This document shows, in pieces, positions 12,296 through 64,000 of a DNA stretch of 64,000 nt. The position numbers and the translations under genes are program-made. Source of the stretch: Verrucomicrobiia bacterium. Lineage in GTDB: Bacteria; Verrucomicrobiota; Verrucomicrobiia; Palsa-1439. Numbering within the stretch: the first letter of the stretch is position 1; each line of letters begins with the position of its first letter. The DNA lies in assembly GCA_052146795.1 (NCBI GenBank), contig JBKQMH010000188.1:2996-66995 (forward strand). Reading direction: 5' to 3'. Below the pieces are notes generated by a model. It did no database searches and was not told where the DNA came from. It worked only from the letters and a program-made list of their open reading frames with translations.

Positions 12296-13048
12296 GTGGC
12301 ACAAACCGAACGAACGCTGGTCATTATTCCGACGTACAACGAGAAGGAGAATGTCCGGTCGGTGATCGAATTGGTGTTGGCACAGGCTCCCAGCCTCGAT
12401 GTACTGGTGGTGGATGATAATTCTCCGGATGGCACGGCGAGCATCGTCACCGAGATCGCCCGGGCCAATCCTCGGGTGCAGTTGATAAGCCGCGCCGGCA
12501 AGCTCGGATTGGGCACGGCGTACATTGCGGGGTTTAAATGGGGCCTGTCGCGAGGCTATGCCTGCCTGGTCGAGATGGACGCCGATTTCTCGCACGACCC
12601 GCGCGAGGTCCCCAATATGCAAAAGGCGATGGAGAATGCCGATCTCGTTTTGGGTTCGCGGTACATTGACGGCATACGCGTCGTGAACTGGCCATTGTCC
12701 CGTTTGTTCCTGAGCAAGGGTGCGTCCTATTACGTACGAATTATCACGGGATTGCCCGTGAACGATCCCACGGCCGGCTTCAAGTGTTTCCGTCGTTGCG
12801 TATTGGAAGCGATTGACCTCGACGCGGTCCGCAGCAACGGCTACGCTTTCCAAATCGAAATGACCTACGAGACGTGGATGAAAGGTTTCCGCGTTCGTGA
12901 GATACCGATTACATTTACGGACCGGTATGCCGGCCAGTCCAAAATGTCAGGACACATCGTTCGGGAGGCCCTGTGGATGGTCTGGGTGTTGGCGGTCAAA
13001 CATGGATTTCGGCGAAGGCCCCGTGTTTTACGGAAGTCCGATGGATGA
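12296..13048 (+). CDS. Polyprenol monophosphomannose synthase (DPM1-like GT2)
   Basis: IIPTYNE, VDDNSPDGT, GLGTAY, MDADFSHDP, GYAFQIEM. Confidence 0.92.
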   Translation: MAQTERTLVIIPTYNEKENVRSVIELVLAQAPSLDVLVVDDNSPDGTASIVTEIARANPRVQLISRAGKLGLGTAYIAGFKWGLSRGYACLVEMDADFSHDPREVPNMQKAMENADLVLGSRYIDGIRVVNWPLSRLFLSKGASYYVRIITGLPVNDPTAGFKCFRRCVLEAIDLDAVRSNGYAFQIEMTYETWMKGFRVREIPITFTDRYAGQSKMSGHIVREALWMVWVLAVKHGFRRRPRVLRKSDG

Positions 13049-13090: not shown

Positions 13091-15652
13091 ATGAGCGATT
13101 CCCCAGTGCCGATCGGGACGACGGAATCCGCGCCATCAATTCCGCAGGCTCACGGGCGGTTCTTCAGTGCCCGCGACTCGATCGCATTCTTGCTGGCGAG
13201 TGTCGTGAGCTTTGCCGTGTATCTGTGCACGCTGGCTCCGGGTGTGACCTTGGAGAACGCGGGTGAGTTACTGACCGCATCGCATAGTCTTGGGGTGCCG
13301 AATCCGCCGGGATACGCGGCATGGACACTTCTCGCCGCGATTTGGCAGCGGATCGTTCCCCTCCACAACATCGCCTGGCGTGTCAACCTGATGTGCGCCC
13401 TCTTGGGGGCCCTGGCTGTCGGCCTGCTGGCGCTGCTCATCTCGAAGAGTGGACGTGTCATGGCGTCCCGCTGCGGATTCTTGCAAGGGCGCGAAACCGG
13501 CGCGGGGCTGGACTGGATCATTCTGGCAAGTTCCGTCTCGGCCGCATGGATGCTGGCGTTTTCCCCGGCGATGTGGTCCCAATCGGTGATCACCGAGGCG
13601 TGGACTCTAAACGTGTTCTTGCTCGTGGCGATCCTTGTGCTCCTCTATCGATGGAGTCTTGAGCCGGAACGTTGCTGGCAGCTGTATCTGGCGGGCTTCC
13701 TGTGGGGCGTCAGCCTCACGAACCACCAGACACTGGTGTTGCTGGCGGTGGCGTTTCCGACGTTCCTGTGGTTCGTCGACCGCGAGTTGGGTCGCGATGT
13801 ATTGGCCCCGATGTTGGCGGTCATCGTATTGGCTGTGGCAAAGATGATCGTGTCCCCCGGCAGCTTGTTCTGGCAGGGAGCGTTTGCCGCTGCCTGGGTC
13901 CTCGGACATGGAGTCGGCGCCGGTGTGTGGCTGCGCTATTTGTGGAAACAGGGCTCCGGGCTGATGAGAATGTGGCGACGGGCGCTCGCGATCTATGCGA
14001 CGGTCGTTCTCGGGATGTCGCTGTACGCCTATGTCCCCCTCTCATCGGCGACCAACCCGCCAATCAACGGGACTTACGGGCATGGTCTGATTACCACGGT
14101 TTACCAAGTTGCGATCAGCCAGTACGAAAGCGTTCATGCCGAACGCAGCCCGCTCCAGTTTTGGGGTCAGATCAATATGTTCTTTGACGACCTCAAATCC
14201 CAGTTCACCATCGTCTACGCGTTGATCGCGCTGCTGGCGATGTTGTTCTACCGGGATCTGGCCCGTGAAGATCGCCGCTGGTTGCTCTTTCTGCTGATCG
14301 CCTTTCTCTTCCTGGCGCTGGATTTGATCTTTTTCTCGAACCCGAGCTTCGAACGACGGAGACAATATCCCGAGCTTGTCAGTTTTCTGCCGTGCCATTG
14401 TTTGTACGCGCTGTGGATCGGCTACGGGTTGATTCTCGGATGCGGAAACCTTGTTTCGGAGAGGCCCTCACCGCGGAAAATAACGGTCCCGTTGGCGGCC
14501 CTCGTTGCGGCATTGCCATTGGCATCGCTCGCCCTCCACTGGGCTGGGTCCGAGCAACACGCCCACGATTTCGGATACCAGTTCGGTTATCTGGTCCTCG
14601 AACCCGGCGGTGGTTATCCCGACATGGACAAAGGCGCAATCCTGCTCGGGGGCGCGGACCAGGGCCGATTCCTGCCGACGTACATGACCGTTGTCGAGAG
14701 CCAGGTGCCGCCATCCGCAAAAACTCAACTGGCGAAGTATCCCGGGAGCGAATCGTTCGACCGCCATGATGTTTACATCATCACGCAAAACGCATTGGCC
14801 GACGGACGCTACCTGAGACGCGTCCGCGATCATTATGGGGCCGATCGCCCCGATTCACGGATTCCGAAAACCGTGAGCGATCTTGCCGTCTGGGAACGCG
14901 CGGTGTTCGAGTTTGGCTGGCGCCATCTGGGGCGCGACACAGCGTATCCGCGGGATCCGATTTGGTTGCCCAATGACGACGATGTCCAGGCCGCCATTCG
15001 TCAGTACGTGGACGAACTCCGAATCCGTCACCCTCTGCCCGGCGAGGAGGTGAAGATCGAAGGCGGCCGCGTCAGCCTCCAAGGCGTCACCAGTGTGATG
15101 GCCGTCAACGGTTATCTGGCGAAGGCGCTCTTTGATCACAATAAAGACCAGCACACGTTCTATGTGGAAGAGAGCTACACGATCCCCTGGATGTATCCGT
15201 ACCTGGAGCCATTCGGCCTCATCTTCCGAATCAACAGGGATCCCATCCCGAAGATTACGCCAAACATGATTGTCCGCGATCGTGCCTGGTGGGATGCTCT
15301 GTTCGAGGATCTCCACAACGATCCACGATTCCAACGCGACGAAGTCGCGCAACGGACCTTCTCCAAACTGCGGTCAACTGTCGGCGGGCTGTATGCCTTC
15401 CGTCTCATCTTTCCCGAGGCGGAGTACGCGTTTCGACAGGCAATCGCGCTTTGTCCGGAAAGTCCCGATGCCAACTTCCGTCTCGCCCAACTCTATGTGG
15501 AATTGGGCCGATTCGACGGTGCCCTCGCCGTCCTCAAGGACTTTGCGAAGCACGACCCGTATAACCCGCGGATTCCCGACTTCATCGATACCGTCCTCAC
15601 CCTCAAGCAACAGTCCATCAATCCGGCGCCGGACCACACGCTCGCGCCCTAA
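13091..15652 (+). CDS. DUF2723/TMEM260-like protein O-glycosyltransferase with C-terminal TPR
   Basis: YLCTLAPGVTLENAGEL...LGVPNPPGY, WSQSVITE, NHQT; C-terminal TPR (AEYAFRQAIALCP). Confidence 0.82.
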   Translation: MSDSPVPIGTTESAPSIPQAHGRFFSARDSIAFLLASVVSFAVYLCTLAPGVTLENAGELLTASHSLGVPNPPGYAAWTLLAAIWQRIVPLHNIAWRVNLMCALLGALAVGLLALLISKSGRVMASRCGFLQGRETGAGLDWIILASSVSAAWMLAFSPAMWSQSVITEAWTLNVFLLVAILVLLYRWSLEPERCWQLYLAGFLWGVSLTNHQTLVLLAVAFPTFLWFVDRELGRDVLAPMLAVIVLAVAKMIVSPGSLFWQGAFAAAWVLGHGVGAGVWLRYLWKQGSGLMRMWRRALAIYATVVLGMSLYAYVPLSSATNPPINGTYGHGLITTVYQVAISQYESVHAERSPLQFWGQINMFFDDLKSQFTIVYALIALLAMLFYRDLAREDRRWLLFLLIAFLFLALDLIFFSNPSFERRRQYPELVSFLPCHCLYALWIGYGLILGCGNLVSERPSPRKITVPLAALVAALPLASLALHWAGSEQHAHDFGYQFGYLVLEPGGGYPDMDKGAILLGGADQGRFLPTYMTVVESQVPPSAKTQLAKYPGSESFDRHDVYIITQNALADGRYLRRVRDHYGADRPDSRIPKTVSDLAVWERAVFEFGWRHLGRDTAYPRDPIWLPNDDDVQAAIRQYVDELRIRHPLPGEEVKIEGGRVSLQGVTSVMAVNGYLAKALFDHNKDQHTFYVEESYTIPWMYPYLEPFGLIFRINRDPIPKITPNMIVRDRAWWDALFEDLHNDPRFQRDEVAQRTFSKLRSTVGGLYAFRLIFPEAEYAFRQAIALCPESPDANFRLAQLYVELGRFDGALAVLKDFAKHDPYNPRIPDFIDTVLTLKQQSINPAPDHTLAP

Positions 15653-15690
15653 GAGCTTTCCATAGCCAGCACGGCACCCCTCGGAGGCAC

Positions 15691-15764
15691 AACGGCAATG
15701 TTCGCCAATCGTCCAAAGCGGGGACTCCTTTTTGCTTTCCTCGCGGCTCCATCAGGGGTTCAAT
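15691..15764 (+). repeat. Copy 1 of dispersed ~74 bp attI/promoter-like leader
   Basis: AACGGCAATG-TTCGCCAATCGTCCAAAGCGGGGACTCCTTTTTGCTTTCCTCGCGGCTCCATCAGGGGTTCAAT; homologous to 16736-16810 and 17788-17862. Confidence 0.9.
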
Positions 15765-15877
15765 GGGTCTCGCGGACTTGACCGGTGCGGAGGCACATCG
15801 TAGCTCTGGGAAGTCAGGTCGGGGAGCTTTCGGAGCTTCCAAGCGGAGTCCATTTTGCCGGCAGCCGTCGAAGGCAT

Positions 15878-16672
15878 ATGAAAAAATGCGCTTACTGCGG
15901 GTTCGATAACGATGACACGGCACGGTATTGCAGCGACTGCGCGTGCAGTCTGGATGGGGTCACCCCTTCGACTCCACCGGCCTCCACGCCCCCTTCAACC
16001 GTTGTTCCGCCCCAACCGCAGCGAATGGTGACATTCCGGAAATATCTGGTCTTGAGCCAGGCCGAGCGTGATAAATCGTTGCTGGAAGCCGCCGGCATTC
16101 CCGTGTTTCTTGCCGGGGAAAACAGTGCTGCTGCTGGTTATGGAACTGTTCTGGGCGAACTACGACTGCAAGTACAGGAAGCCGATGCCGACCGCGCCCG
16201 TCGAGTGCTGGACGAGCATGAAGGATTTGCCCCTCTCCCAGACGACTTCATTCCGCCAGCGGACCCGGCCCGAACAGGGGCTGGATTGGAGACCATGGAA
16301 ACGACCACCAATAGTACGGACGCAGGCAACAAGAACATCCTGATCAGCGTTGTGATCACTCTCTTGGTCGTGGCGGTGGCGATTGCTCTGTACAATCCAC
16401 CGCGGACTTCCAGTCGTGGGGTCAGCGACCGTGATCGCCAAGAATACGAGCAAAGGGTGCAGCGAGCCGAAGCGCTGATGACATCCCAGGAGCAGTCACA
16501 CCAACGGTACGTCGACTTTCTTGCGAAAGCGGAAGGGAACCAGCGGCGTTACGTCGAAGTGCTTACGAAATGGGAAGAGGATCAGCGACGGTTCGAGAAG
16601 ATTCTCGCGACGTGGGAGCAACAACAGCAAGCGTATCAGAAGTACCTGGACAGTCTTGGCAAGAAGCCATGA
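15878..16672 (+). CDS. Zinc-ribbon + DUF2007-like domain fused to a TM/coiled-coil protein (possible fusion of two cassette genes)
   Basis: CAYC..CSDC zinc ribbon; KSLLEAAGIPVFL (DUF2007-like); internal GGAG-ATG at 16295 precedes a TM and 14-aa coiled-coil repeats. Confidence 0.7.
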   Translation: MKKCAYCGFDNDDTARYCSDCACSLDGVTPSTPPASTPPSTVVPPQPQRMVTFRKYLVLSQAERDKSLLEAAGIPVFLAGENSAAAGYGTVLGELRLQVQEADADRARRVLDEHEGFAPLPDDFIPPADPARTGAGLETMETTTNSTDAGNKNILISVVITLLVVAVAIALYNPPRTSSRGVSDRDRQEYEQRVQRAEALMTSQEQSHQRYVDFLAKAEGNQRRYVEVLTKWEEDQRRFEKILATWEQQQQAYQKYLDSLGKKP

Positions 16673-16735
16673 TGTCCGTAGTAAGTGCTCGCTTCAGCCA
16701 GCGCGGCCCCCTGACCGGCAAGCGTGAGAAGTTCA

Positions 16736-16810
16736 AACCGCCAGATTCGCCAATCGTCCAAGTCGGCTACGCCTTTTCTGCTTTCCTCGCGGTTTTGTCC
16801 GAGGTGTAAT
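16736..16810 (+). repeat. Copy 2 of dispersed attI/promoter-like leader
   Basis: AACCGCCAGA-TTCGCCAATCGTCCAAGTCGGCTACGCCTTTTCTGCTTTCCTCGCGGTTTTGTCCGAGGTGTAAT. Confidence 0.88.
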
Positions 16811-16822
16811 GGGGTCGAACAC

Positions 16823-17107
16823 GTGAACTGGAACAGGATTCTTTCAGGGTTGCTGGCGGTGCTCTACGTCGGCGGAGCTTACATGGCCGTAGGCGGCGAA
16901 GGCGCGGCGAAAACTGCGATCTTTGCCATTTTCCCTCTCGCCTGCATCTGGTTTGGGGACGAGATGGGTGGTTACATTGGGCCGACATCAAGTGGGGCCA
17001 TTACAAGTCCGACGCCCGGCTGGCTGGTGTGCATCGGAGGTTGGCTGGTATTACTCTTGCCGGTTCTCATTGGGATTGTGTATGCACTCATGGGTACAGG
17101 AGCCTAA
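16823..17107 (+). CDS. Small membrane protein, cassette-borne
   Basis: GTG start, about 3 TM segments; TAA stop lies inside GCCTAAC (attC R''). Confidence 0.7.
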   Translation: MNWNRILSGLLAVLYVGGAYMAVGGEGAAKTAIFAIFPLACIWFGDEMGGYIGPTSSGAITSPTPGWLVCIGGWLVLLLPVLIGIVYALMGTGA

Positions 17108-17177
17108 CCATGTGCTCCAGCCAACCGCTGCCCGATGCGCGGCTCGCGGTCGCTCGGCTTGACTAAACGGTTCAGCG
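17102..17177 (+). other. attC-like site (degenerate)
   Basis: GCCTAAC-CATGTGCTCCAGCCAACCGC...GCGGTCGCTCGGCTTGACTAAACG-GTTCAGC: RYYYAAC start, imperfect palindrome, GTT end. Confidence 0.7.
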
Positions 17178-17182
17178 AGGGA

Positions 17183-17647
17183 ATGAAACGAGTCACTCAA
17201 ATTCTTATCTCACCGTCGCCGGCGTCTGCCATGCAGCCGACGCAAGAGGTTCGGGCCGTTCCCGGCAAGGGTCTGGTGGGAGACCGGTATTTTTCCGGTG
17301 CAGGGACCTTTTCCCCGCATCCGCAAAAGCCCGATTTCGAAATCACATTCATCGAACGCGAAAAGATCGAGGCGTTCGCTCGCGACTCGGGCCTCGCGTT
17401 TACAGCGGCGCACGCGAGACGGAACATTGTGACGGAAGGGGTCGACCTGAATGAACTGGCCGGCAGAGAGTTCTTGGTCGGGGAAGTGCGCATACGCGGC
17501 ATTCGCCTCTGTGAACCCTGTAATTATCTGGCCAAAGCTTCCTTTCCGGAAATCTTGAAAGGACTCGTCAATAAAGGCGGGTTACGAGCCCAAATCCTTT
17601 CGGAAGGCGTCATTCACGTGGGGGATTGCATCGAGGATATGGCGTGA
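17183..17647 (+). CDS. MOSC domain protein, cassette-borne
   Basis: GLVGDRY, RRNIVTEGVDLN, CEPC, GGLRAQIL..G.I..GD. Confidence 0.88.
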   Translation: MKRVTQILISPSPASAMQPTQEVRAVPGKGLVGDRYFSGAGTFSPHPQKPDFEITFIEREKIEAFARDSGLAFTAAHARRNIVTEGVDLNELAGREFLVGEVRIRGIRLCEPCNYLAKASFPEILKGLVNKGGLRAQILSEGVIHVGDCIEDMA

Positions 17648-17787
17648 ATGCCGTGACAAATCCACAGGTGACGCACAATGGCCGGCACTGGCAGGGGGCG
17701 AGTTTGTTCGGCAGATCCTTGCACGAGTGAAATCACATGGTCACAGTGCCGCCAGACCAGTGCGCTCTGGCGAACCGCCGCTAATCA

Positions 17788-17876
17788 AACCGCAATTTTC
17801 GCCAATCGTCCAGAGCGGGGACTCCTTTTGTGCTTTCCTCGCGGTTCCATCAGAGGTCTAATACATGTTAGGCGCA
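17788..17876 (+). repeat. Copy 3 of leader, ending in an attI-like core (CTAATACAT-GTTAGGC)
   Basis: Repeat 17788-17862 runs directly into GTTAGGCGCA (17867-17876), the GTTRRRY integron core. Confidence 0.85.
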
Positions 17877-17894
17877 AGAGCATCTTCCGCGAGA

Positions 17895-18626
17895 ATGAAC
17901 ACACAGACTCCTACACTGACGCCACAAGAAGCCGCCATCAGGCGCGGACGCTTCCTTGAGTATCTTAGCGTAGCCTGGATGGTAGTCGAGGCCGCGGTCG
18001 GCATTGCTTCGGGTATTCTCGCAGGCAGCATCGCGCTAGTCGGCTTCGGCGCTGATTCGGTTATCGAGGTTTTTTCTAGTGCTGTGCTCCTTTGGCGGTT
18101 GCGCGAAGGCTCGATGGGACAGGAGCGCGAGCATACAGCCCTCAAGCTCGTCGGCGTCAGCTTTTTCGCATTGGCGGCTTATGTCACGTTCGGCGCGATT
18201 CGCGACTTGGCTCTGCGTCACCACCCGGAAGTCAGCTATATCGGCATCACGCTTGCGGTCGTCGCTCTCGTGGCGATGCCCTTGCTGGCACGAGCCAAGC
18301 GCCGCGTGGCCGCGAGCTTGCAGAGTCGCGCAATGCACGCGGACTCACGTCAGTCTGATTTCTGTGCTTATCTATCCGGTATTCTTCTCGGTGGACTTAT
18401 CCTTAACGCCTTCTTTCGCTGGTGGTGGGCCGACCCCGCGGCAGCACTCGTCATGGTGGTACTCATGCTCCGAGAGGGTGTTCAGGCATTTCGCGGAGAG
18501 ACCTGTTGCAATTCAACGCATGCGCCTAACCATACGATGCCGCTAACCGACTCCGCGCCTCACGCCGACTGCTGCAAACCCGCAGACCCACCGGCAGCCG
18601 ACGCGCCGCGCTCCGCCGGTGGCTGA
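17895..18626 (+). CDS. Cation diffusion facilitator-like (TMEM163-like) transporter, cassette-borne; C-terminus reads through attC
   Basis: GSIALVGFGADSVIEV, AMHADSRQS, WWADP; bounded by GTTAGGCGCA (17867) and TGCGCCTAAC (18521). Confidence 0.85.
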   Translation: MNTQTPTLTPQEAAIRRGRFLEYLSVAWMVVEAAVGIASGILAGSIALVGFGADSVIEVFSSAVLLWRLREGSMGQEREHTALKLVGVSFFALAAYVTFGAIRDLALRHHPEVSYIGITLAVVALVAMPLLARAKRRVAASLQSRAMHADSRQSDFCAYLSGILLGGLILNAFFRWWWADPAAALVMVVLMLREGVQAFRGETCCNSTHAPNHTMPLTDSAPHADCCKPADPPAADAPRSAGG

Positions 18627-18734
18627 ACCTGTACTCGATGTTCAGGACGTCAACGCCGATTGCGCCTTCGGTTCCGCTTTCGTGGGCTTGCGTTTTGTTT
18701 CGGCGTGGCTGAGATTTGGTCGGTTGGGCGTCTC
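18521..18734 (+). other. Composite/degenerate attC region (left arm of one attC plus right arm of another)
   Basis: Starts TGCGCCTAAC; ends CGGCGTGGCTGAGATTTGGTCG-GTTGGGCGTCTC. Confidence 0.7.
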
Positions 18735-18748
18735 ACGTGCATCTTCGA

Positions 18749-19366
18749 ATGAACCGTCAGGAACATTGGAATCAGGTTTACCAGACCAAAGGGTCTCAGG
18801 ATGTGAGTTGGTATCAGCGCCGCCCAGACTTCTCGCTGGCGCTCATCGCAGCATCTGGCGTGAGCAAGAATACAGGCATAATTGACGTTGGCGGCGGCGC
18901 ATCCACCCTCGTTGATTTTCTGCTCGATGACGGTTACACGCGGCTTGCGGTGCTCGACCTGTCCGGTGTCGCACTGAGTCACAGTCGCTCACGGCTTGGG
19001 GAGCAAGCAGGCGCAGTCGAGTGGTTCGAGGCAGACGTGACATCATTCGAGCCGCGGCATCGTTTCGGCCTGTGGCATGACCGAGCCGTGTTTCATTTCC
19101 TGACGGCAGCAGACGACCGTCGCAGATACGTTGCGACGCTGCGGCGAACTTTGCAACCGGGCGGCACAGTTGTGATTTCCACTTTCGCGCCGGATGGCCC
19201 ACCGAAGTGCAGCGGTCTTGATGTCATGCGTTACGATGAGCAGACCATCCTCACGGAGTTGGGCGCGGAGTTTCAGCTTCAGGAGGTTCGCCGTGAAATC
19301 CACGTGACACCTTGGCAGTCCGAGCAGCGTTTTATTTACTTTCGGTTTCGGTTGCAGAGCACATGA
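18749..19366 (+). CDS. Class I SAM-dependent methyltransferase (TPMT-like), cassette-borne
   Basis: HWNQVY..K..VSWYQ, IIDVGGGAS, WHDRAVFHFL; bounded by GTTGGGCGTCTC (18723) and GAGACGCCTAAC (19369). Confidence 0.9.
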   Translation: MNRQEHWNQVYQTKGSQDVSWYQRRPDFSLALIAASGVSKNTGIIDVGGGASTLVDFLLDDGYTRLAVLDLSGVALSHSRSRLGEQAGAVEWFEADVTSFEPRHRFGLWHDRAVFHFLTAADDRRRYVATLRRTLQPGGTVVISTFAPDGPPKCSGLDVMRYDEQTILTELGAEFQLQEVRREIHVTPWQSEQRFIYFRFRLQST

Positions 19367-19368
19367 AA

Positions 19369-19437
19369 GAGACGCCTAACAAGTTTGCCCCAGCGCACTG
19401 CCGCCATGCCTCTCCGCCAAACGCTGTGCCGGAACTC
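19369..19437 (+). other. Truncated attC-like site
   Basis: GAGACGCCTAAC R'' followed by a partial arm, ending at the convergent gene. Confidence 0.6.
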
Positions 19438-21390
19438 CTAGCCTTTGTAATGCTGGAAGGCACTGGCCAGCAGGATCAGTTCGGGATGCGCGGCCTGCAG
19501 TTTGGGCAGCACCAGCCGAATCTGGGAACGATAGACCGCCAATTTCTCGGCGAGCGGTTTCAGGTTGTCCACCTTGTCCCAGTGGAGCTTGTTCAGATCC
19601 AGCACCAGCCGGCTCTTGCTCCGCGCCAGTGAATCATGGATGCGCTGGCCCAACTTCTCGGCCTGGGCGCCCGACAGGGCGCCGCTCAATCGCAGCCAGA
19701 CCTGTTTCTTGGCGTGTTGCAGTTCAACTTGAATCGACAGGTCGGGGATCGCGATTTTATCCGGGATTTCTTCCCAGAGATGGAATTCGCTCCAGCGCTT
19801 CGCCGGCATACGGTACGCCGTCCGGATTAGCTTGGGATGCTGGAACAGGTTGAACTTCAATGTCACCCACGTCCACAGCGCCGCCCCGACCGCGAGCGGG
19901 GACTGGAGCCGTTGGGCCAGCGTGGGACGGCCGAGTTCGGCGCAAATCTGTCGTCGCAAATCACCAATCCAGCGCCGCACCGTGGCGTTGGGACCGAGCA
20001 ACCGGCCCGCGAGGAAGATCGGGAGCGCGACGCGCAAATCGGCGGCGTAATGCGCGGCCTTCCGTCGCAGGATCGGATTCGGTGAGTTCTTGAGCGTCTG
20101 GTAGCCGAGAAACCGCGATTCGAGGACGCGGAAGATGCTCGGACCGAGTCGTTGGAAATCCTCGTCGAAACACCACTGTTGCAGGCCCTCGATCTCGGCC
20201 GCGGAAAGCGTCGGATGCTTCATCGTGGTGGTAAACCCGTCCGCCTGGTGGTAGAGCCGGTCGGGATGCTCGACGTACTCTTCGAGCATGAGGTTGTCGC
20301 GCACGACCCGCGCATTGAACGGCGTGCTGGGCACGGGACCATAAATCAGGTATTGCCCCAGCGACGGCTTGAGTTTCATCAACCCGTCCAGTTCCTCGGC
20401 GATCACCTCGGGCGTCTGGTAATCAAACCCGAGGATCATTGAGCTCAGGATCGTGATGCCATGTGCGCGAAACTCGTTGAAAATGTCCTCCACGGGACGG
20501 CCCTGCTGTTTGGCATAGCCCGACCGCGTGCCTTCGTAGCCGATCCAGAACCCATCGATCCCCATTTCGAGGATCTCTTCGACGGTGTACTGGCTGAGGG
20601 CCTTGATGCTGGAAAAGGCGAAGATCGAGAGTTGCTTGCCGCTCTTGATCACGCAATCGCGGAACTCCATTGCCCGCTTCTTGTTGAGCAGAAAATCCTC
20701 GTCGATAATCAGGAACACGAGGCTCGGGTCCATGTCGTGATAGCGCTGGGTGACGTCGAAGATGTCCTTGCCCGTGGGCAGCAGCTTGATGTGCTTGCGC
20801 TTGAAGAAATGCGACGTGCAGCAGAAATCGCAGCCGTTGGGACAGCCCAAGCCGGCGAAAATCTTGCCCGTGCCCGACACTTTCCAGCCAAACACTTTCA
20901 GCCAGCTCACGATCAGCGGCTGCTTGTAGGGCATCGGGATTTGGGGTTCGCCCAGCAGCCGGCGCATATAGCCGACACCTTCCTCGCGGCAAATGAAGTC
21001 GGCATACGGCGTGAGTTCTTCATCGGTCAACACCGTGCCGTAACCGCCGAGGATGATCTTGGTATCGGGCGCGTGTTCGCGGATCAAGGCGACCATGTCT
21101 TTGACCTTGTGGAAGATTGCCATCAGAAAGGAAATGCCGACGTAGTCGTAGCCCTTCTTGAGTTCCTTGATCAACTCGCGCTTCGACGGGTATTGCAGCA
21201 CGACCGTTGGCGTGTCGAGGTTCTCCGCGATGTATTCGATGGAAAACTGGACGTTCACCGTGCGCGGGCTGAAAATGCCCTGGGCCCGGGTCACCTGGCG
21301 GTAGAGCAATTCATAACCCACCGATGTCGCGTCCCCGCATTGGGGCCCCATCGGCCGACACACAGTGGTCAGCAGAACTTTCTTGTTCAC
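19438..21390 (-). CDS. B12-binding radical SAM protein with C-terminal STAS-like domain
   Basis: GCPNGCDFC (CxxxCxxC); N-terminal cobalamin-binding segment (YVGISF..IILGGYG); C-terminal LRLSGALS...LVLDLNKL. Confidence 0.85.
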   Translation of the reverse strand: MNKKVLLTTVCRPMGPQCGDATSVGYELLYRQVTRAQGIFSPRTVNVQFSIEYIAENLDTPTVVLQYPSKRELIKELKKGYDYVGISFLMAIFHKVKDMVALIREHAPDTKIILGGYGTVLTDEELTPYADFICREEGVGYMRRLLGEPQIPMPYKQPLIVSWLKVFGWKVSGTGKIFAGLGCPNGCDFCCTSHFFKRKHIKLLPTGKDIFDVTQRYHDMDPSLVFLIIDEDFLLNKKRAMEFRDCVIKSGKQLSIFAFSSIKALSQYTVEEILEMGIDGFWIGYEGTRSGYAKQQGRPVEDIFNEFRAHGITILSSMILGFDYQTPEVIAEELDGLMKLKPSLGQYLIYGPVPSTPFNARVVRDNLMLEEYVEHPDRLYHQADGFTTTMKHPTLSAAEIEGLQQWCFDEDFQRLGPSIFRVLESRFLGYQTLKNSPNPILRRKAAHYAADLRVALPIFLAGRLLGPNATVRRWIGDLRRQICAELGRPTLAQRLQSPLAVGAALWTWVTLKFNLFQHPKLIRTAYRMPAKRWSEFHLWEEIPDKIAIPDLSIQVELQHAKKQVWLRLSGALSGAQAEKLGQRIHDSLARSKSRLVLDLNKLHWDKVDNLKPLAEKLAVYRSQIRLVLPKLQAAHPELILLASAFQHYKG

Positions 21391-42748: not shown

Positions 42749-43853
42749 GCCGCGAGGCTCACACCATATCTATCCGCGTGGCAAGAGTTGGTATTATCAA
42801 TTTACGGTCAAAGGCAAACGGTACCAAGGTGCGATTGGCGAGGTGAGCAAAGCCGTAGCGCGTGAGGTTGCCGAAAAGAAGCGCGTTGAGGCATTGGAAG
42901 GCAAGCTTGTCGAGCGACCGCTGAAAGCCCCGTTATTCGGGCATTACGACGCGGAGAAGGGGCAATTCACCAATGCTGTCGGTGAGTACCACAAATACTA
43001 TCGGGAGAATCACAAGGCGCGGTCAGCGGAGCGTATGACGTATGCGCTGCAAGCGTTGTGCGACGTGTTCGGCTCAAAGCGTCTGGATGAGATCAGTCCC
43101 TTTGGCGTCGAGCAGTACAAGGCACAGCGCAAGGCGGCAGGTTATGCGGACGCCACGACTAACCGCGAATTGGCGTGCCTGAAGAATCTTTTCAACATGG
43201 CAATCAAATGGGGTTGGACGGTGGACAATCCAGTGCGACAGGTGCGATTTTACCGCGAGAACAATGCTCGGTTGCGGTGGTTGACATTGGAGGAAGAAAC
43301 CGAGTTGCTAAAGCATTGTGACCAGCGGTTGAAAACCTTGGTGTTGGCGGCGGTGGACACTGGCTTTCGGGCGGGTGAGCTTCGGTCGTTGCGCTGGCAG
43401 GCCGTGGACTTCGCACGCGGCACGGTGTCCGTAGCCAGTTACTACACCAAGAACGGCGACCCGCGATGCAATCCGATGACCAAGCGGCTAGAGCAGGCAT
43501 TGCGAGAGTACAAGAGCGCGGCAGGGGACAGGGCGGACGGGCTGGTGTTCGGGCCGCAGCAGTGGCGCAAGGCGTTTGAGAGCGCGAAAAAACTTGCGGG
43601 ATTAGGCAAGGACGTTGTATTTCATTCCCTGCGGCACACGTATATTAGCCGTCTGGTGATGGCGGGAGTGGACATTCGCACCGTGCAAGAGTTGGCAGGA
43701 CACAGGACGATCACAATGACGATGCGTTACGCGCACCTTGGGCCGGAGCAAAAGAAGCGGGCGGTGGCCAGATTGGACGCCGAAGTTACTGCAAATGTTA
43801 CGACAGTGGACTTTGGCGCTGTACGGGTGGCCGCTGTAAGTCCCTCACTTTGA
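42696..43853 (+). CDS. int: Tyrosine recombinase/phage integrase
   Basis: N-terminal arm-binding beta domain; catalytic R (TGFRAGEL), K (TKNG), HSLR, LAGH, Y (MRYAH). Confidence 0.96.
   Translation: MNEAQDVAAQAPKQEKRRPRGSHHIYPRGKSWYYQFTVKGKRYQGAIGEVSKAVAREVAEKKRVEALEGKLVERPLKAPLFGHYDAEKGQFTNAVGEYHKYYRENHKARSAERMTYALQALCDVFGSKRLDEISPFGVEQYKAQRKAAGYADATTNRELACLKNLFNMAIKWGWTVDNPVRQVRFYRENNARLRWLTLEEETELLKHCDQRLKTLVLAAVDTGFRAGELRSLRWQAVDFARGTVSVASYYTKNGDPRCNPMTKRLEQALREYKSAAGDRADGLVFGPQQWRKAFESAKKLAGLGKDVVFHSLRHTYISRLVMAGVDIRTVQELAGHRTITMTMRYAHLGPEQKKRAVARLDAEVTANVTTVDFGAVRVAAVSPSL
43784..43806 (+). repeat. Integrase arm-type site candidate (right, inside the int 3' end)
   Basis: AGTTACTGCAAATGTTACGACAG. 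Confidence 0.8.
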
Positions 43854-43860
43854 ACATGGT

Positions 43861-43936
43861 GGCTAGGTAGCTCAGTTGGTAGAGCACTGCACTGAAAATG
43901 CAGGTGTCGTCAGTTCGATTCTGACCCTAGCCACCA
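43861..43936 (+). tRNA. tRNA-Phe(GAA)
   Basis: GGCTAGG/CCTAGCC acceptor stem, CTGCA-CTGAAAA-TGCAG anticodon arm, GTTCGATTC T-loop, encoded CCA. Confidence 0.97.
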
Positions 43937-61305: not shown

Positions 61306-64000
61306 CTACGGCACCAACCACACCCGGTAAAAGAGGAGGGGATTGTTGGTGGCAGCGCCGTAATCGGTCTGGTTCGTGGGTGAGCCGGTGCCGAGGGTGA
61401 TGGAACCGACATTGTTCCAGGTACTGTTGGTGCCAGGAGCGCCACTGCTCTGGAGTTGATTGGTCTTGTTCGGCTCCGTCGTCCACGTGATCTGGACGTC
61501 ACTGCCGACGATGCTGATGTTCGTGATGCGGAAGGCGGTGCTCGGATCGAGCGGGTCGGTGCCCGCCAGATAGTCCTGCAAATTGGAAAAGCCAGACCCA
61601 TCCGCGTCATCGCTGGCCAGCGAATTGTCGTTGGACTGGCCGGTGGGGTGATTGAAGTAGCCGAGCATCCACCAATCCGGGATGCCGTCGCCATCGCTGT
61701 CGAGATCGCCAATCTTGCGAACCTGGATACCGGAGGCGCGAGCATTGTCGGCGGCGCCGGGCACAAAGTCCATATCAACTTGCGCGTTGTTGACGGCGGC
61801 GGTGAACACGAGAGTGATGGGGATATTCATGCCACCGGCAGCGGCAAAGATATCGAAGTTGGTGAGCACCTGTTGGCCTTGGATGAACAAATTAAACTCA
61901 CGCTTGCCGTTGGTGCTCCAGTACGTCTCGGCTTCGAGCAACTGGATTTCATACATGCCTTCGGGACAATCGAAGAGATAACTGAAGCTGCCGCCGGAGC
62001 TGTAGCGTTCCCATTGATACAGACGGTACGCATTTGAACAAATGCCCGTGATCGCATTGTTGACGAAGCCGGTGAGGCTGTCGCCCGTATAACCAAAGGA
62101 ATTGAAGTTGTAGGTCTGATCTTTCACCCACACGTTGGCGGTGCAGTCGGTGACCGTGTACGGGTCGCCGGGGCTGATGCGGGTGAGGTAAGCACCCGGC
62201 ACATTGAAGACGTTGACCGTGACCGACGGGATGGTCGACACGTTGCCCGACGTGTCGGTCGCCTGAGCATAAATGGTGTGCAGACCGTTGAGCATGTTCT
62301 GTGTGTTGAGTGAGAAGGACCAACTGGTGGTGCCCGAGGCGGTGATCCAAGCGCCATTGTCGATACTGAACTGCACGCTGGCGACAGCGACATTGTCGGA
62401 CGCAGTGCCCGAAATCACGAGTGTCCCCACGACCGTGGCACCATTCGTGGGGGTGTCAATTGACACCGTCGGTGGCGTCAGATCCACCGCCGTGTTGGTA
62501 GAGGTCACGAAATAGGTATCGAACGCCCCATACAGCGAGTTGCTGGTAACAGAGTCCATCGCGTTCGTGCCCAGATGGACCAGGTTTGTCGTCGAAGGTG
62601 ACCAGCCGCCGCTGGGTGTGAACGTCATGGTGTCCTGCAACGCGTCCCACGTGAACGAGCCGTCTATCGGCGGTGTGCTCGGGGAGGCTTGCGCCGAGCA
62701 TACGGTGAGCGACCCAGCGCTGATGCACACACACGTCGCGGGCGTGACCGAGAACGCCGCCTGCACTGAGTTAGTATTCATCGGTTTGCTGAAGCGCAGC
62801 ACGAAGGACGCCGCGATGGACACGTTGGTCGCCGCATGTGACGGGATCTGATTGGTGATCACGGGATCAAGCGGCAGCACCAGCGACTGGGCGATATAGA
62901 TCTTGGCGGTCATGCTCGGCACGGTGATCGGTGGCGTGGCGTTGGTGCCAGCGGAAGTTGTCACGACAATGGTGTCGTTGGTGTTGAGCAGGTTGACGAG
63001 CACGGTGCCGGGAGCATAGGTGGTGGGGCGATTCGTCAACGTCTGGCTGGAGCTGGCAGTGTTGAAGCAGACAAAAACCTCCTCGTTGCTCAGGACGCGA
63101 GAGTAGGCAAACAGACCTGGACCGCTGGGGTTGTTCCACAGATTGTTGTGCACGCCTGTGCACAATGCGGGATAGAGACGTCGGAAGTTGTTGAGTTTGG
63201 CCACCTGCTGAAACAGCGGCTGGGTCTCGTTGAAGTTGTCGCCCACGGAGGGAGAATCTGGTTGCCATCCCCCCGCGAACATGTCTTCGCGGTCATCGTT
63301 GTTGTTGCCGTCGCCTTCGAATCCCTGCTCGGTGCCGTAGTACAGGCACGGAATCCCGCGCGACGTATACAGGAACTGCAACGCGACGGTGAGGCGGTTG
63401 GTGGTAGCGCCACTGTTGCTAAGGAAGCGCGGCTGGTCGTGATTGTCGAGGAACGTGACCAGGCGATACCAGGAGTTGGAATCGTAATACGTGGCGATGT
63501 TATCGTAGTGGGACTCGATCTGCTGCGTGTTTCCCGACGCTGTGGCAAAGACCGAGTTGATGCAGTTGTAATACAACGCGTAGTCCAGTGTCGCATCGAA
63601 TTTGAAAGCCCCGCCGCCTTCGGTCCCTGTGTAGGAACCGATCTGCTGTTCGTTGCCGCTGTCGGCCTCGCAAAACATGAAGAAATTGGACTTGCCCATC
63701 GAGGTGCCGGACTGGTGAAGCTGCGGGCACCAGTACTGCCAGAAGCCGTAGTCCACTTCGATCGCCGTGTCCACGCGGAACGCATCGAAGTCGGCGATCC
63801 CAACCCAGTTGGTATAAATGTTCATCAGGTTCGTTTGGACGTAGGTGGTCTCAGTCCGCAAATCGTCCAGGCCGTCGAGTTCCCCTAACACGTCCTCATT
63901 GGTGTCTGTGGGATAATTGAAACACGTACCGCAGATATCGCCATTCGTGTGAAAAATGGTTGAGAGCTGCGGCGGGGAAACATTTGTGGGGTTAAATGGG
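61306..64000 (-). CDS. Secreted GH13 alpha-amylase-family enzyme with Ig-like, malectin and C-terminal surface module; N-terminus outside window
   Basis: DAFRVDT, FLDNHD, GIPCLYYGTEQ; Ig-like LRFSKPMN; malectin (REFNLFIQG..FDIFAAAGG); DSDGDGIPDWW...YLAGTDP...FYRV. Confidence 0.9.
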   Translation of the reverse strand, partial: PFNPTNVSPPQLSTIFHTNGDICGTCFNYPTDTNEDVLGELDGLDDLRTETTYVQTNLMNIYTNWVGIADFDAFRVDTAIEVDYGFWQYWCPQLHQSGTSMGKSNFFMFCEADSGNEQQIGSYTGTEGGGAFKFDATLDYALYYNCINSVFATASGNTQQIESHYDNIATYYDSNSWYRLVTFLDNHDQPRFLSNSGATTNRLTVALQFLYTSRGIPCLYYGTEQGFEGDGNNNDDREDMFAGGWQPDSPSVGDNFNETQPLFQQVAKLNNFRRLYPALCTGVHNNLWNNPSGPGLFAYSRVLSNEEVFVCFNTASSSQTLTNRPTTYAPGTVLVNLLNTNDTIVVTTSAGTNATPPITVPSMTAKIYIAQSLVLPLDPVITNQIPSHAATNVSIAASFVLRFSKPMNTNSVQAAFSVTPATCVCISAGSLTVCSAQASPSTPPIDGSFTWDALQDTMTFTPSGGWSPSTTNLVHLGTNAMDSVTSNSLYGAFDTYFVTSTNTAVDLTPPTVSIDTPTNGATVVGTLVISGTASDNVAVASVQFSIDNGAWITASGTTSWSFSLNTQNMLNGLHTIYAQATDTSGNVSTIPSVTVNVFNVPGAYLTRISPGDPYTVTDCTANVWVKDQTYNFNSFGYTGDSLTGFVNNAITGICSNAYRLYQWERYSSGGSFSYLFDCPEGMYEIQLLEAETYWSTNGKREFNLFIQGQQVLTNFDIFAAAGGMNIPITLVFTAAVNNAQVDMDFVPGAADNARASGIQVRKIGDLDSDGDGIPDWWMLGYFNHPTGQSNDNSLASDDADGSGFSNLQDYLAGTDPLDPSTAFRITNISIVGSDVQITWTTEPNKTNQLQSSGAPGTNSTWNNVGSITLGTGSPTNQTDYGAATNNPLLFYRVWLVP

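Follow-up and report, generated by a model that had tools for sequence, protein, structure and literature searches.

The subject of this work is a locus of a 64,000-nt stretch of contig JBKQMH010000188.1 (hereafter the window), from the genome assembly GCA_052146795.1 of a Verrucomicrobiia bacterium. A short repeat is found there three times, each copy standing at the head of a gene group, and behind the third copy lie the remains of an array of integron cassettes. The closest described systems are the clusters of attC sites, or the single attC sites, lacking integron-integrases (CALIN and SALIN). In the available part of PMC4889954, CALINs with degenerate attC sites are proposed as a step toward fixation, and the expression of their cassettes, as well as the way cassettes become ordinary genes, is left as an open point. 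Our locus is like them in that it has attC cassettes, some with degenerate attC, and an integrase neither nearby nor found in the genome. Another close case is the integrase-mediated insertion outside att sites, for which the accessible text of Loot et al. (bioRxiv 10.1101/2022.09.11.507474) gives a GWT consensus, and expression if the cassette lands near a resident promoter; here also one cassette lies at a GWT-type site, and its expression would hinge on the adjacent resident promoter. Unlike in these two cases, the putative resident promoter-leader is multicopy, genus-wide and recurs at the heads of cassette groups in several genomes; moreover the integron integrase (IntI) was not found in 18 genomes of the genus, whereas it is present in most of the sister genera sampled.

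The repeat may also be compared with an integron platform, i.e. the cassette promoter Pc plus attI. Like it, the repeat lies upstream of the first cassette in the same orientation, abuts G|TTRRRY (copy 3 only), and could supply transcription and possibly a start codon. Unlike it, the repeat has no intI link that we could find, exists in many copies mostly without cassettes, has no inverted pair of core sites, and runs into ordinary leaders in copies 1 and 2. Lastly, the Correia and other intergenic mosaic elements of Neisseria (PMC2649163, in the part available) are likewise short multicopy intergenic modules, able to provide promoters and forming mosaics beside variable genes. The modules described here differ from them by the lack of terminal inverted repeats, by their constant co-orientation with genes and by their confinement to one genus of Verrucomicrobia.

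The explanation we favour, to which we give about an even chance, is that the repeats are a resident, genus-specific, composite promoter-leader module driving accessory genes and a decayed CALIN, and are not attI sites. An earlier sequence-only reading of the window had proposed instead that attI/Pc-plus-cassette modules were repeatedly deposited here and then fixed by loss of the core site, along a route thought to be undescribed. That route is largely in print, as far as the available parts of PMC4889954 and bioRxiv 10.1101/2022.09.11.507474 tell: cassettes fixed and expressed from a nearby promoter are already reported. The novelty lies in the modular promoter-leader, present in many copies, and in its repeated placement at the heads of cassette groups in a genus without found IntI.

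Three composite copies in the window

As announced by the sequence-only reading, the repeat search gives three co-oriented copies (15691-15764, 16736-16810 and 17788-17862) spaced by 1045 and 1052 nt. Their 15-nt core, TTCGCCAATCGTCCA, has exact + strand matches at 15701, 16746 and 17798, for 0.32 matches expected from dinucleotide shuffles, none of which (0/100) reaches four; a second block of the repeat has three matches for 0.02 expected. A fourth, weaker match to the core, with two mismatches, lies near the end of the window (63855-63869). Copy 3 is identical to copy 1 at 93% and 86% over two blocks, and we count about eight differences between them, not the six or so first claimed; over the same two blocks copy 2 shows 79% and 75% identity.

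The similarity exceeds the span first delimited, by about 20 nt upstream for all copies and by about 30 nt downstream for copies 1 and 2. The upstream extension belongs to a module that we call E, the downstream one to a module that we call V: a whole copy of about 75-120 nt joins these two modules, E then V, and both are genus-wide (Table 1). Loose ends of contigs at 16728/16761 and 17826/17862, observed with short DNA contigs assembled from four runs (X1, X4, X5 and X6), correspond to other copies of the repeats; contig beginnings or ends do not pile up anywhere in these data.

Module E has the motif of an ECF-type promoter

Module E is about 55 nt long (58-nt alignment). A profile of the three copies had many partial matches in the own genome, with first and second halves also occurring apart. 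This genome is a 4.05-Mb metagenome-assembled genome (MAG) of 215 contigs, 93.75% complete, and contains 34 copies of E according to R1, our sequence-only covariance model of the module (32 at E<1e-6 with a second-round profile). With R1, E is present in all 17 congeners, at 2-53 copies each, and in 5 of 19 genomes from other genera of the family; outside the family, only 2 of 24 genomes give a match, each single and weak.

In the 71 distinct copies of the genus, conservation is high over positions 18-54. It peaks at A21 (0.99), in ..TCAAAC.., and at C40, G41 and T42 (1.00, 0.94 and 0.97), in CGTC, position 39 scoring only 0.52; in the three copies of the window AAC and CGT are separated by 16 nt. 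The promoters dependent on extracytoplasmic function (ECF) sigma factors have “AAC” at -35 and “CGT” at -10 with a spacer of 16 +/- 1 (PMC3426412, available part), and E fits this definition, AAC-N16-CGTC being among its most conserved bases. E is most likely an ECF-sigma promoter, as judged from its letters: an alternative-sigma promoter with ..TCAAAC.. as -35 and CGTC as -10, 16 nt apart. We infer from this motif its promoter activity, the type of sigma factor that would read it, and a transcription start about 6-9 nt past CGTC, at the GCGGGG that ends E. If so, a likely ECF-type regulon of TMEM260-like glycosyltransferase paralogs would emerge in this uncultured soil/peat lineage, along with two regulatory modules, E and V, that span the genus. 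In most cases a copy of E sits between paralogs in tandem, about 630-850 aa long and with TPR repeats at the C-terminus, and the TMEM260-like/TPR gene preceding copy 1 is the type of paralog after which E usually lies.

We examined the orientation of the neighbours for 32 copies of the own genome, using a home-made codon-usage gene finder. Both neighbours are co-oriented with E in 20 cases; only the upstream gene is co-oriented, the downstream one being opposite, in five, and the reverse is found in four; both are opposite in one case, and two copies are at a contig end. From such counts, position alone cannot separate a 5' role from a 3' role.

Some other identities of E were considered and rejected. 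A sigma-54 promoter does not suit, the GG..GC spacing being 11 and not 10. The derivation of E from the 5' half of an attC, evoked by a GCGCAAC-like motif seen by eye upstream, has no statistical support. By analogy, E could have been an ops/JUMPStart-like antitermination signal: a NusG paralog is present, but nothing was found that links it to E. This second NusG-family gene is at G000:C196:18973-19254 (the canonical one is on C95), and a XerC/D-like recombinase gene is located about 4 kb from it (C196:22844-23653).

Module V behaves as an mRNA leader

Module V is pyrimidine-rich and about 50-80 nt long, about 75-80 nt when complete. Its model (R2) finds seven copies in the own genome, four fused to E and three without E, and 1-20 copies in each of the 17 congeners (17/17); among other genera of the family one genome out of six has it, and none of 15 outside the family. 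In 41 aligned copies, 38 of them distinct, the conserved blocks are ..TGCTTTCCTCGCGGTT.. and ..TAATGGG.., and the 3' end is GGAGG or GGAAGG. Read from the sequences, a plausible start codon follows V within about 20 nt in roughly half of the 38 distinct copies. V precedes genes of many unrelated kinds, for small membrane proteins, DUF2007 and MOSC proteins, GT-C transferases, secreted proteins, acetyltransferases and methyltransferases, and is itself found behind several different upstream modules. An upstream open reading frame (ORF) starting at the ATG of TAATGGGG was rejected, because copies differ by indels of 1-2 nt and by changes at all codon positions. With this tolerance to indels, the ribosome-binding end, the unrelated downstream genes, the varied upstream modules and no structure, V behaves like a 5' leader that carries a ribosome-binding site. 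The whole copy is thus probably a two-part module, promoter plus mRNA leader, in which V would be the 5' untranslated leader with the GGAGG ribosome-binding site at its end.

The lack of structure is consistent. RNAalifold finds no consensus pair, either for V (41 sequences) or for E (30 sequences), and a weak 9-pair fold obtained from seven V copies is gone with 41. The single-strand DNA folds of the three window copies, on both strands, are no better than those of shuffles (z +0.19 to +2.36), which agrees with the repeat having been called not palindromic. A structured RNA or an attC-like hairpin was consequently rejected for E and V. The sequence-only reading had also considered that the repeat might turn out to be a known non-coding RNA, or the end of an insertion sequence or of a miniature inverted-repeat transposable element. 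At the gathering threshold, Rfam 15 detects only two tRNAs in the window, and at E<=1 it gives no match for five loci including all three copies. Inverted repeats, terminal or other, were found neither at nor around the three copies, no target-site duplication was seen by eye in the flanks of 32 E copies, and the consensus scan detected no terminator-like hairpin at the repeat copies. We accordingly regard as very improbable that the repeats are a signal acting on RNA (processing, stability, target of a small RNA or a protein in a 3' or 5' untranslated region) or a selfish miniature mobile element, in spite of their strand-specificity, their location between co-oriented genes and their copy number among congeners (2-53), all of which speak for such a signal or element.

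Integron cassettes behind copy 3

Copy 3 continues into ..TCTAATACATG and then GTTAGGC (17867-17873), with ACATG directly after the copy, and a partner GCCTAAC is found at 18524, as had been noticed. GCCTAAC, with 34 occurrences on one strand of the genome and 36 on the other, is found three times on the + strand within 2.3 kb (17102, 18524 and 19374), in addition to GTTAGGC at 17867. The G|TTAGGC behind copy 3 is a true cassette boundary and GCCTAAC closes the cassette: the segment 17879-18637 is 93.5% identical in nucleotides to a segment of G021:C25, from a different genus of the family, and the identity ends exactly at the G of the GTTAGGC of a full attC. In G021 this GTTAGGC lies 120 nt after GCCTAAC, the stretch folds with its core sites paired (-29.6 kcal/mol, z -1.5), and the site resembles the textbook attC sites adjoining the G021 intI. 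The cassette encodes a cation-efflux protein of the CDF type (Pfam Cation_efflux), 93% identical in G021 and not found in any of the 17 congeners. If the two ends of the cassette were joined, they would restore GTTAGGC, which is the complement of the GCCTAAC that the cassette carries. The ORF (17865-18626) opens at an ATG belonging to the left flank, and the native ATG (17895) is in the same frame.

As the letters after 18637 are AT, the target of the cassette was G|AT, which fits the GWT consensus reported for insertion outside att sites. We infer from this junction how the insertion may have occurred: the cassette would have entered a G|AT site directly behind the truncated V, by integrase-mediated insertion outside att sites, and would now be read from the resident module. 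The locus offers a concrete and testable case, that of a cassette 93.5% identical to a copy of another genus and placed directly behind a resident promoter-leader module. In G021:C25 (L128/L139, 900-2300) the efflux cassette is, by sequence reading, between two Nramp-type-looking transporter paralogs, and its 5' junction is not a canonical GTT site.

From 17102 to 19427 we count one attC site complete by comparison with G021, one remnant matched by the profile and two 5' halves recognized by eye. As hairpins these candidates were rejected: the attC sites of the window fold no better than shuffles, which indicates that they are decayed, and the site 17102-17177 has in addition no match to the attC profile. 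Judging from these sites, the window cassettes would probably form a small decayed CALIN, as Cury et al. use the term (PMC4889954, as far as its available part defines it). The claim that each copy heads a cassette group thus holds in one respect, each copy heading a gene group at a variable locus, but only the last group is a decayed cassette array. About 70 nt of the gap between the efflux and the methyltransferase genes (18649-18721) recur at two places in G004 and three places in G011, with 81-89% identity; in alignments the stretch falls on the middle and the 3' part of attC sites, and its flanking genes are not shared with these genomes.

Is the repeat an attI site?

The integron-integrase model TIGR02249 (E<=1e-30) has no match in the 18 genomes of the genus, which are 59-95% complete; in the own genome the best score is 88.8 bits, for a cut-off of 265. 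Among the other genera of the family, 13 of 19 genomes have a match, 12 of them over the curated cut-off, G021 included. The remark that no integrase gene accompanies the repeat therefore extends to the own genome and its 17 congeners. The repeat is not found beside intI elsewhere either: neither E nor V occurs in 12 loci, 50.8 kb in all, around the intI genes and arrays of sister genera.

Other elements of the sequence-only reading have to be revised. With 34 copies for E and 7 for V in one genome, mostly beside ordinary TMEM260-like/TPR paralogs without attC nearby, the repeat is not what is expected of attI. When the 3' end of attI (G|TTRRRY, then a cassette) is looked for, copy 3 shows it and copies 1 and 2 do not; the GTT core site is missing behind these two, as had been said. 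This is not a loss, since in relatives V normally runs into the ribosome-binding site: copy 3 is the truncated one. That the repeat is not an attC is borne out, no E or V copy matching the attC profile, and local alignments of E with attC giving z from -1.2 to +1.35. The profile was built from five G021 sites only and its sensitivity is low; it detects just two sites at E<0.05 in the own genome, which indicates that most E and V copies are unrelated to cassettes. Of the attI/Pc-plus-cassette modules, what stands is the promoter-leader look, the cassettes and the absence of found IntI; what does not is the attI identity and the loss of the core.

The repeat does recur ahead of cassette genes, which the sequence-only reading had proposed to check, and modules of the same type stand before groups of cassettes in several congeners. 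G014:C27 has a full V, then ..CATG and TTAGGC, then two small cassettes whose ends are attC-like. At G002:C18, half of an E plus V stands 85 nt ahead of ACATG then TCAGGC; two cassettes come next, the first followed by a canonical attC (E 8.7e-17) and the second by a truncated one, the second profile match of this array having E 3.2e-10. A side observation concerns the latter locus (L103, reverse view 1381-2570): the unit made of half E, V and cassettes is flanked by direct repeats of about 70 nt encoding the C-terminal end of a gene, which suggests an insertion or a rearrangement inside a duplicated gene end; the gene may be of the glyoxalase/VOC type.

These cases keep alive an attI-like or hot-spot reading, in which the 3' edge of V would be a dedicated site for an integrase lost or acting in trans, V representing Pc plus attI without linked intI. 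Behind V, the 8-mer CATGTTAG is found in three genomes (window copy 3, G014:C27 in L096, G004:C5 in L108), for about 0.1 expected by chance according to our estimate; CATG|TTAG after V thus recurs in two other genomes, to which G002:C18 can be added with its ACATG then TCAGGC at 85 nt and its two cassettes with attC matches. Left flanks derived from canonical attC read ..CG|TT, not CATG|TT. Both in the window and in L096 the junction ATG shares the frame of the cassette ORF, and a downstream match to the attC profile is found for 5 of 30 loci centred on V vs 1 of 30 centred on E. Selection for expression, or common descent of the junctions, would however explain the recurrence equally well, and the four junctions may indeed share ancestry. 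The lack of found IntI in all 18 genomes of the genus and of V around intI in sister genera also speaks against a dedicated site, as does the fact that most V copies precede ordinary genes without attC. Moreover, the G|AT of the right junction of the efflux cassette is expected for a non-att GWT site and not for attI (available text of Loot et al.). All considered, we find an attI-like platform unlikely. A broader proposition, only slightly easier to accept and still doubtful in our eyes, is that a genus without found IntI keeps capturing or retaining cassettes behind a portable multicopy module, the 3' edge ..CATG|TTAG.. being a recurrent entry point, analogous to Pc-attI and unlinked to an integrase, that turns cassettes into fixed and separately expressed genes.

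Weighing the promoter-leader explanation

If the favoured explanation is right, E and V would provide the signals for both transcription and translation of accessory genes lacking a sigma-70 type promoter. The genes driven here would be DUF2007, then the small membrane protein together with MOSC, and finally the pair of cassettes (cation efflux and methyltransferase).

Several observations go against this explanation. The spacer of E, GGTTCGCAAA, is conserved as strongly as the -35 and -10 elements, as are about 15 nt on each side; this differs from described ECF promoters, is unusual for a plain promoter and suggests a recognition along the entire element. In the own genome, which has roughly 17 sigma factors of ECF size, none of the 21 sigma-70-family genes has E upstream, so that no cognate sigma factor can be nominated, and an autoregulated ECF sigma factor with E upstream of its gene was rejected on the same count. 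At least four E+V composites of congeners (two in L116, one in L102 and one in L103) retain only the 3' half of E, without AAC. For one set of copies E begins 3 nt past the stop codon of the preceding TPR paralog, so that tandem duplication may explain part of the conservation of E, and the five copies out of 32 followed by a convergent gene would be “promoters” with nothing to drive. As for the cassette, no IntI was found in the MAG to explain its insertion, and the search for an empty target site in the congeners gave only chance-like matches with three mismatches.

Some of these observations would also fit another reading, in which E is bound by a regulator (an activator or a repressor) that controls envelope and glycosylation genes, the core promoter residing in the leaders, i.e. 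TTTCCT-N17-TnTAAT for V. E is conserved without interruption over about 37 nt, “spacer” included, with a CGCAA direct repeat of 10-nt period, and the composites devoid of AAC retain the 3' half of E. Three of the seven V copies of the own genome, and V in many relatives, have no E, so that V then has to work with different sequence upstream, and TTTCCT and TAAT are among its most conserved blocks. The promoter geometry TTTCCT-N17-TnnAAT, already pointed out by the sequence-only reading, is present in all three copies and in nearly all of the 41 aligned relatives. It is thus conserved, but as a promoter it is questionable: TnTAAT never has A at its second position, contrary to the definition of sigma-70 housekeeping promoters, whose hexamers resemble TTGACA-N16-18-TATAAT with A second and T sixth in the -10, and TTTCCT matches TTGACA at 3 of 6 positions, whereas the tRNA genes of the own genome have canonical TTGACA-N17-TAnnnT upstream. 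The consensus scan finds no sigma-70-like promoter between 15600 and 19500, for 0.9 expected; a literature search, within the available parts of the sources, turned up no promoter motif for this lineage. Furthermore no palindrome was found at the repeat copies and no candidate regulator can be named. For these reasons a regulator site seems to us improbable compared with an ECF-type promoter followed by a leader.

At least seven tRNA genes are preceded by a common, conserved module of about 60 nt, in which ..TTGCCAA.. is doubled and followed by ..GTCAAGC.. and then ..TTGTAAGT.., and which adjoins the start of a divergent gene (C34:4868, C51:24791, C87:5073, C140:6716, C173:7808, C175:43163 and C198:39830). 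It is another multicopy promoter-like module of the own genome.

The variable locus

The GT2 and the radical-SAM (S-adenosylmethionine) genes that border the locus are kept in eight congener loci, and the gene content between them differs (BLAST). In G014, with a flanking gene 96% identical, the order is TPR gene, a single E+V, MOSC: the genes for DUF2007, the small membrane protein, efflux and methyltransferase are missing, and so is copy 2. The TPR gene is missing in G003, G008 has the DUF2007 gene, and G009 has no MOSC match. Synteny breaks inside V, at the 3' end of V, or at an attC-like sequence. The genes of the variable part have codon-usage scores of 0.05-0.12 per residue, vs 0.21-0.31 for the flanking genes.

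Table 1. Coordinates of the repeat copies, genes and attC-like sites of the variable locus (window positions).
Feature	Coordinates	Strand	Details
GT2 gene	12296-13048		Left border of the variable locus, conserved
TMEM260-like protein O-mannosyltransferase gene, 853 aa	13091-15652	+	C-terminal TPR repeats; Pfam PF11028 (4.6e-27) and TPR families
Copy 1 composite	15672-15793	+	E 15672-15728; AAC 15691-15693, 16-nt spacer, CGTC 15710-15713; V full length 15717-15793, ends GGAGG; R1 and R2 matches
Zinc-ribbon/DUF2007 gene	15878-16672	+	Headed by copy 1; found in 2/8 congener loci compared (G003, G008)
Copy 2 composite	16716-16838	+	E 16716-16773; AAC 16736-16738; CGTC 16755-16758; V 16763-16838, 3' part diverged
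Small membrane-protein ORF, 94 aa	16823-17107	+	Headed by copy 2; no Pfam family; stop codon inside GCCTAAC
Decayed attC-like site	17102-17177	+	Precedes MOSC; starts GCCTAAC; 5' half like G021 attC sites (by eye)
MOSC-domain gene	17183-17647	+	89-91% identity in 4/8 congener loci compared, neighbours differ
Copy 3 composite	17768-17862	+	E 17768-17825; AAC 17788-17790; CGTC 17807-17810; V from 17814, cut off after TCTAAT (17857-17862)
Cation-efflux (CDF) gene cassette, 770 nt	17868-18637	+	Starts TTAGGC; own attC from GCCTAAC 18524 to G 18637
Remnant attC	18649-18729	+	No 5' core site; ends GTTGGGC 18723-18729; attC-profile E 0.012-0.048
SAM-dependent methyltransferase cassette gene	18749-19366	+	
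Truncated attC 5' half	19374-19427	+	Starts GCCTAAC; congener synteny resumes at 19427-19436
B12-binding radical SAM gene	19438-21390	-	Convergent, conserved; right border of the variable locus

Such variation between modules, with breaks inside or at the end of V, might suggest that the repeats serve as homology handles at gene boundaries, recombination between dispersed E and V copies duplicating, deleting or swapping the gene units. Single genes with E on both sides exist (e.g. C151 8413/10442 and 13361/13800), arrays begin and end with E, and many E copies are at contig ends. In addition, the orthologous E+V of G014 is only 86.7% identical to copy 1 when the adjacent gene is at 96%, and its V part is nearer to copy 3 (89.7%). 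However, sequences of 55-130 nt with about 80-90% identity are poor substrates for homologous recombination, and joined forms were not seen among the assembled DNA contigs, which are short and from which rare variants are dropped. That the copies are strictly co-oriented with genes and keep a fixed position ahead of start codons points rather to a role in expression, as the promoter-leader explanation has it; that exchange between handles would account for the repeats appears to us quite improbable, less so only than an RNA signal or a mobile element.

A 2.2-kb contig of a related population (run X6), which covers 14071-15651, runs along the TPR gene as far as the stop codon, past which it carries about 645 nt unlike the window; this divergence past the TPR gene agrees with a variable content there. 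Further in the window, an ORF for a tyrosine recombinase (43044-43754, +, in an open frame of 396 aa) gives weak partial matches to the IntI model, far below the cut-off. It is located directly upstream of tRNA-Phe (43861-43933), and could mark the edge of a genomic island.

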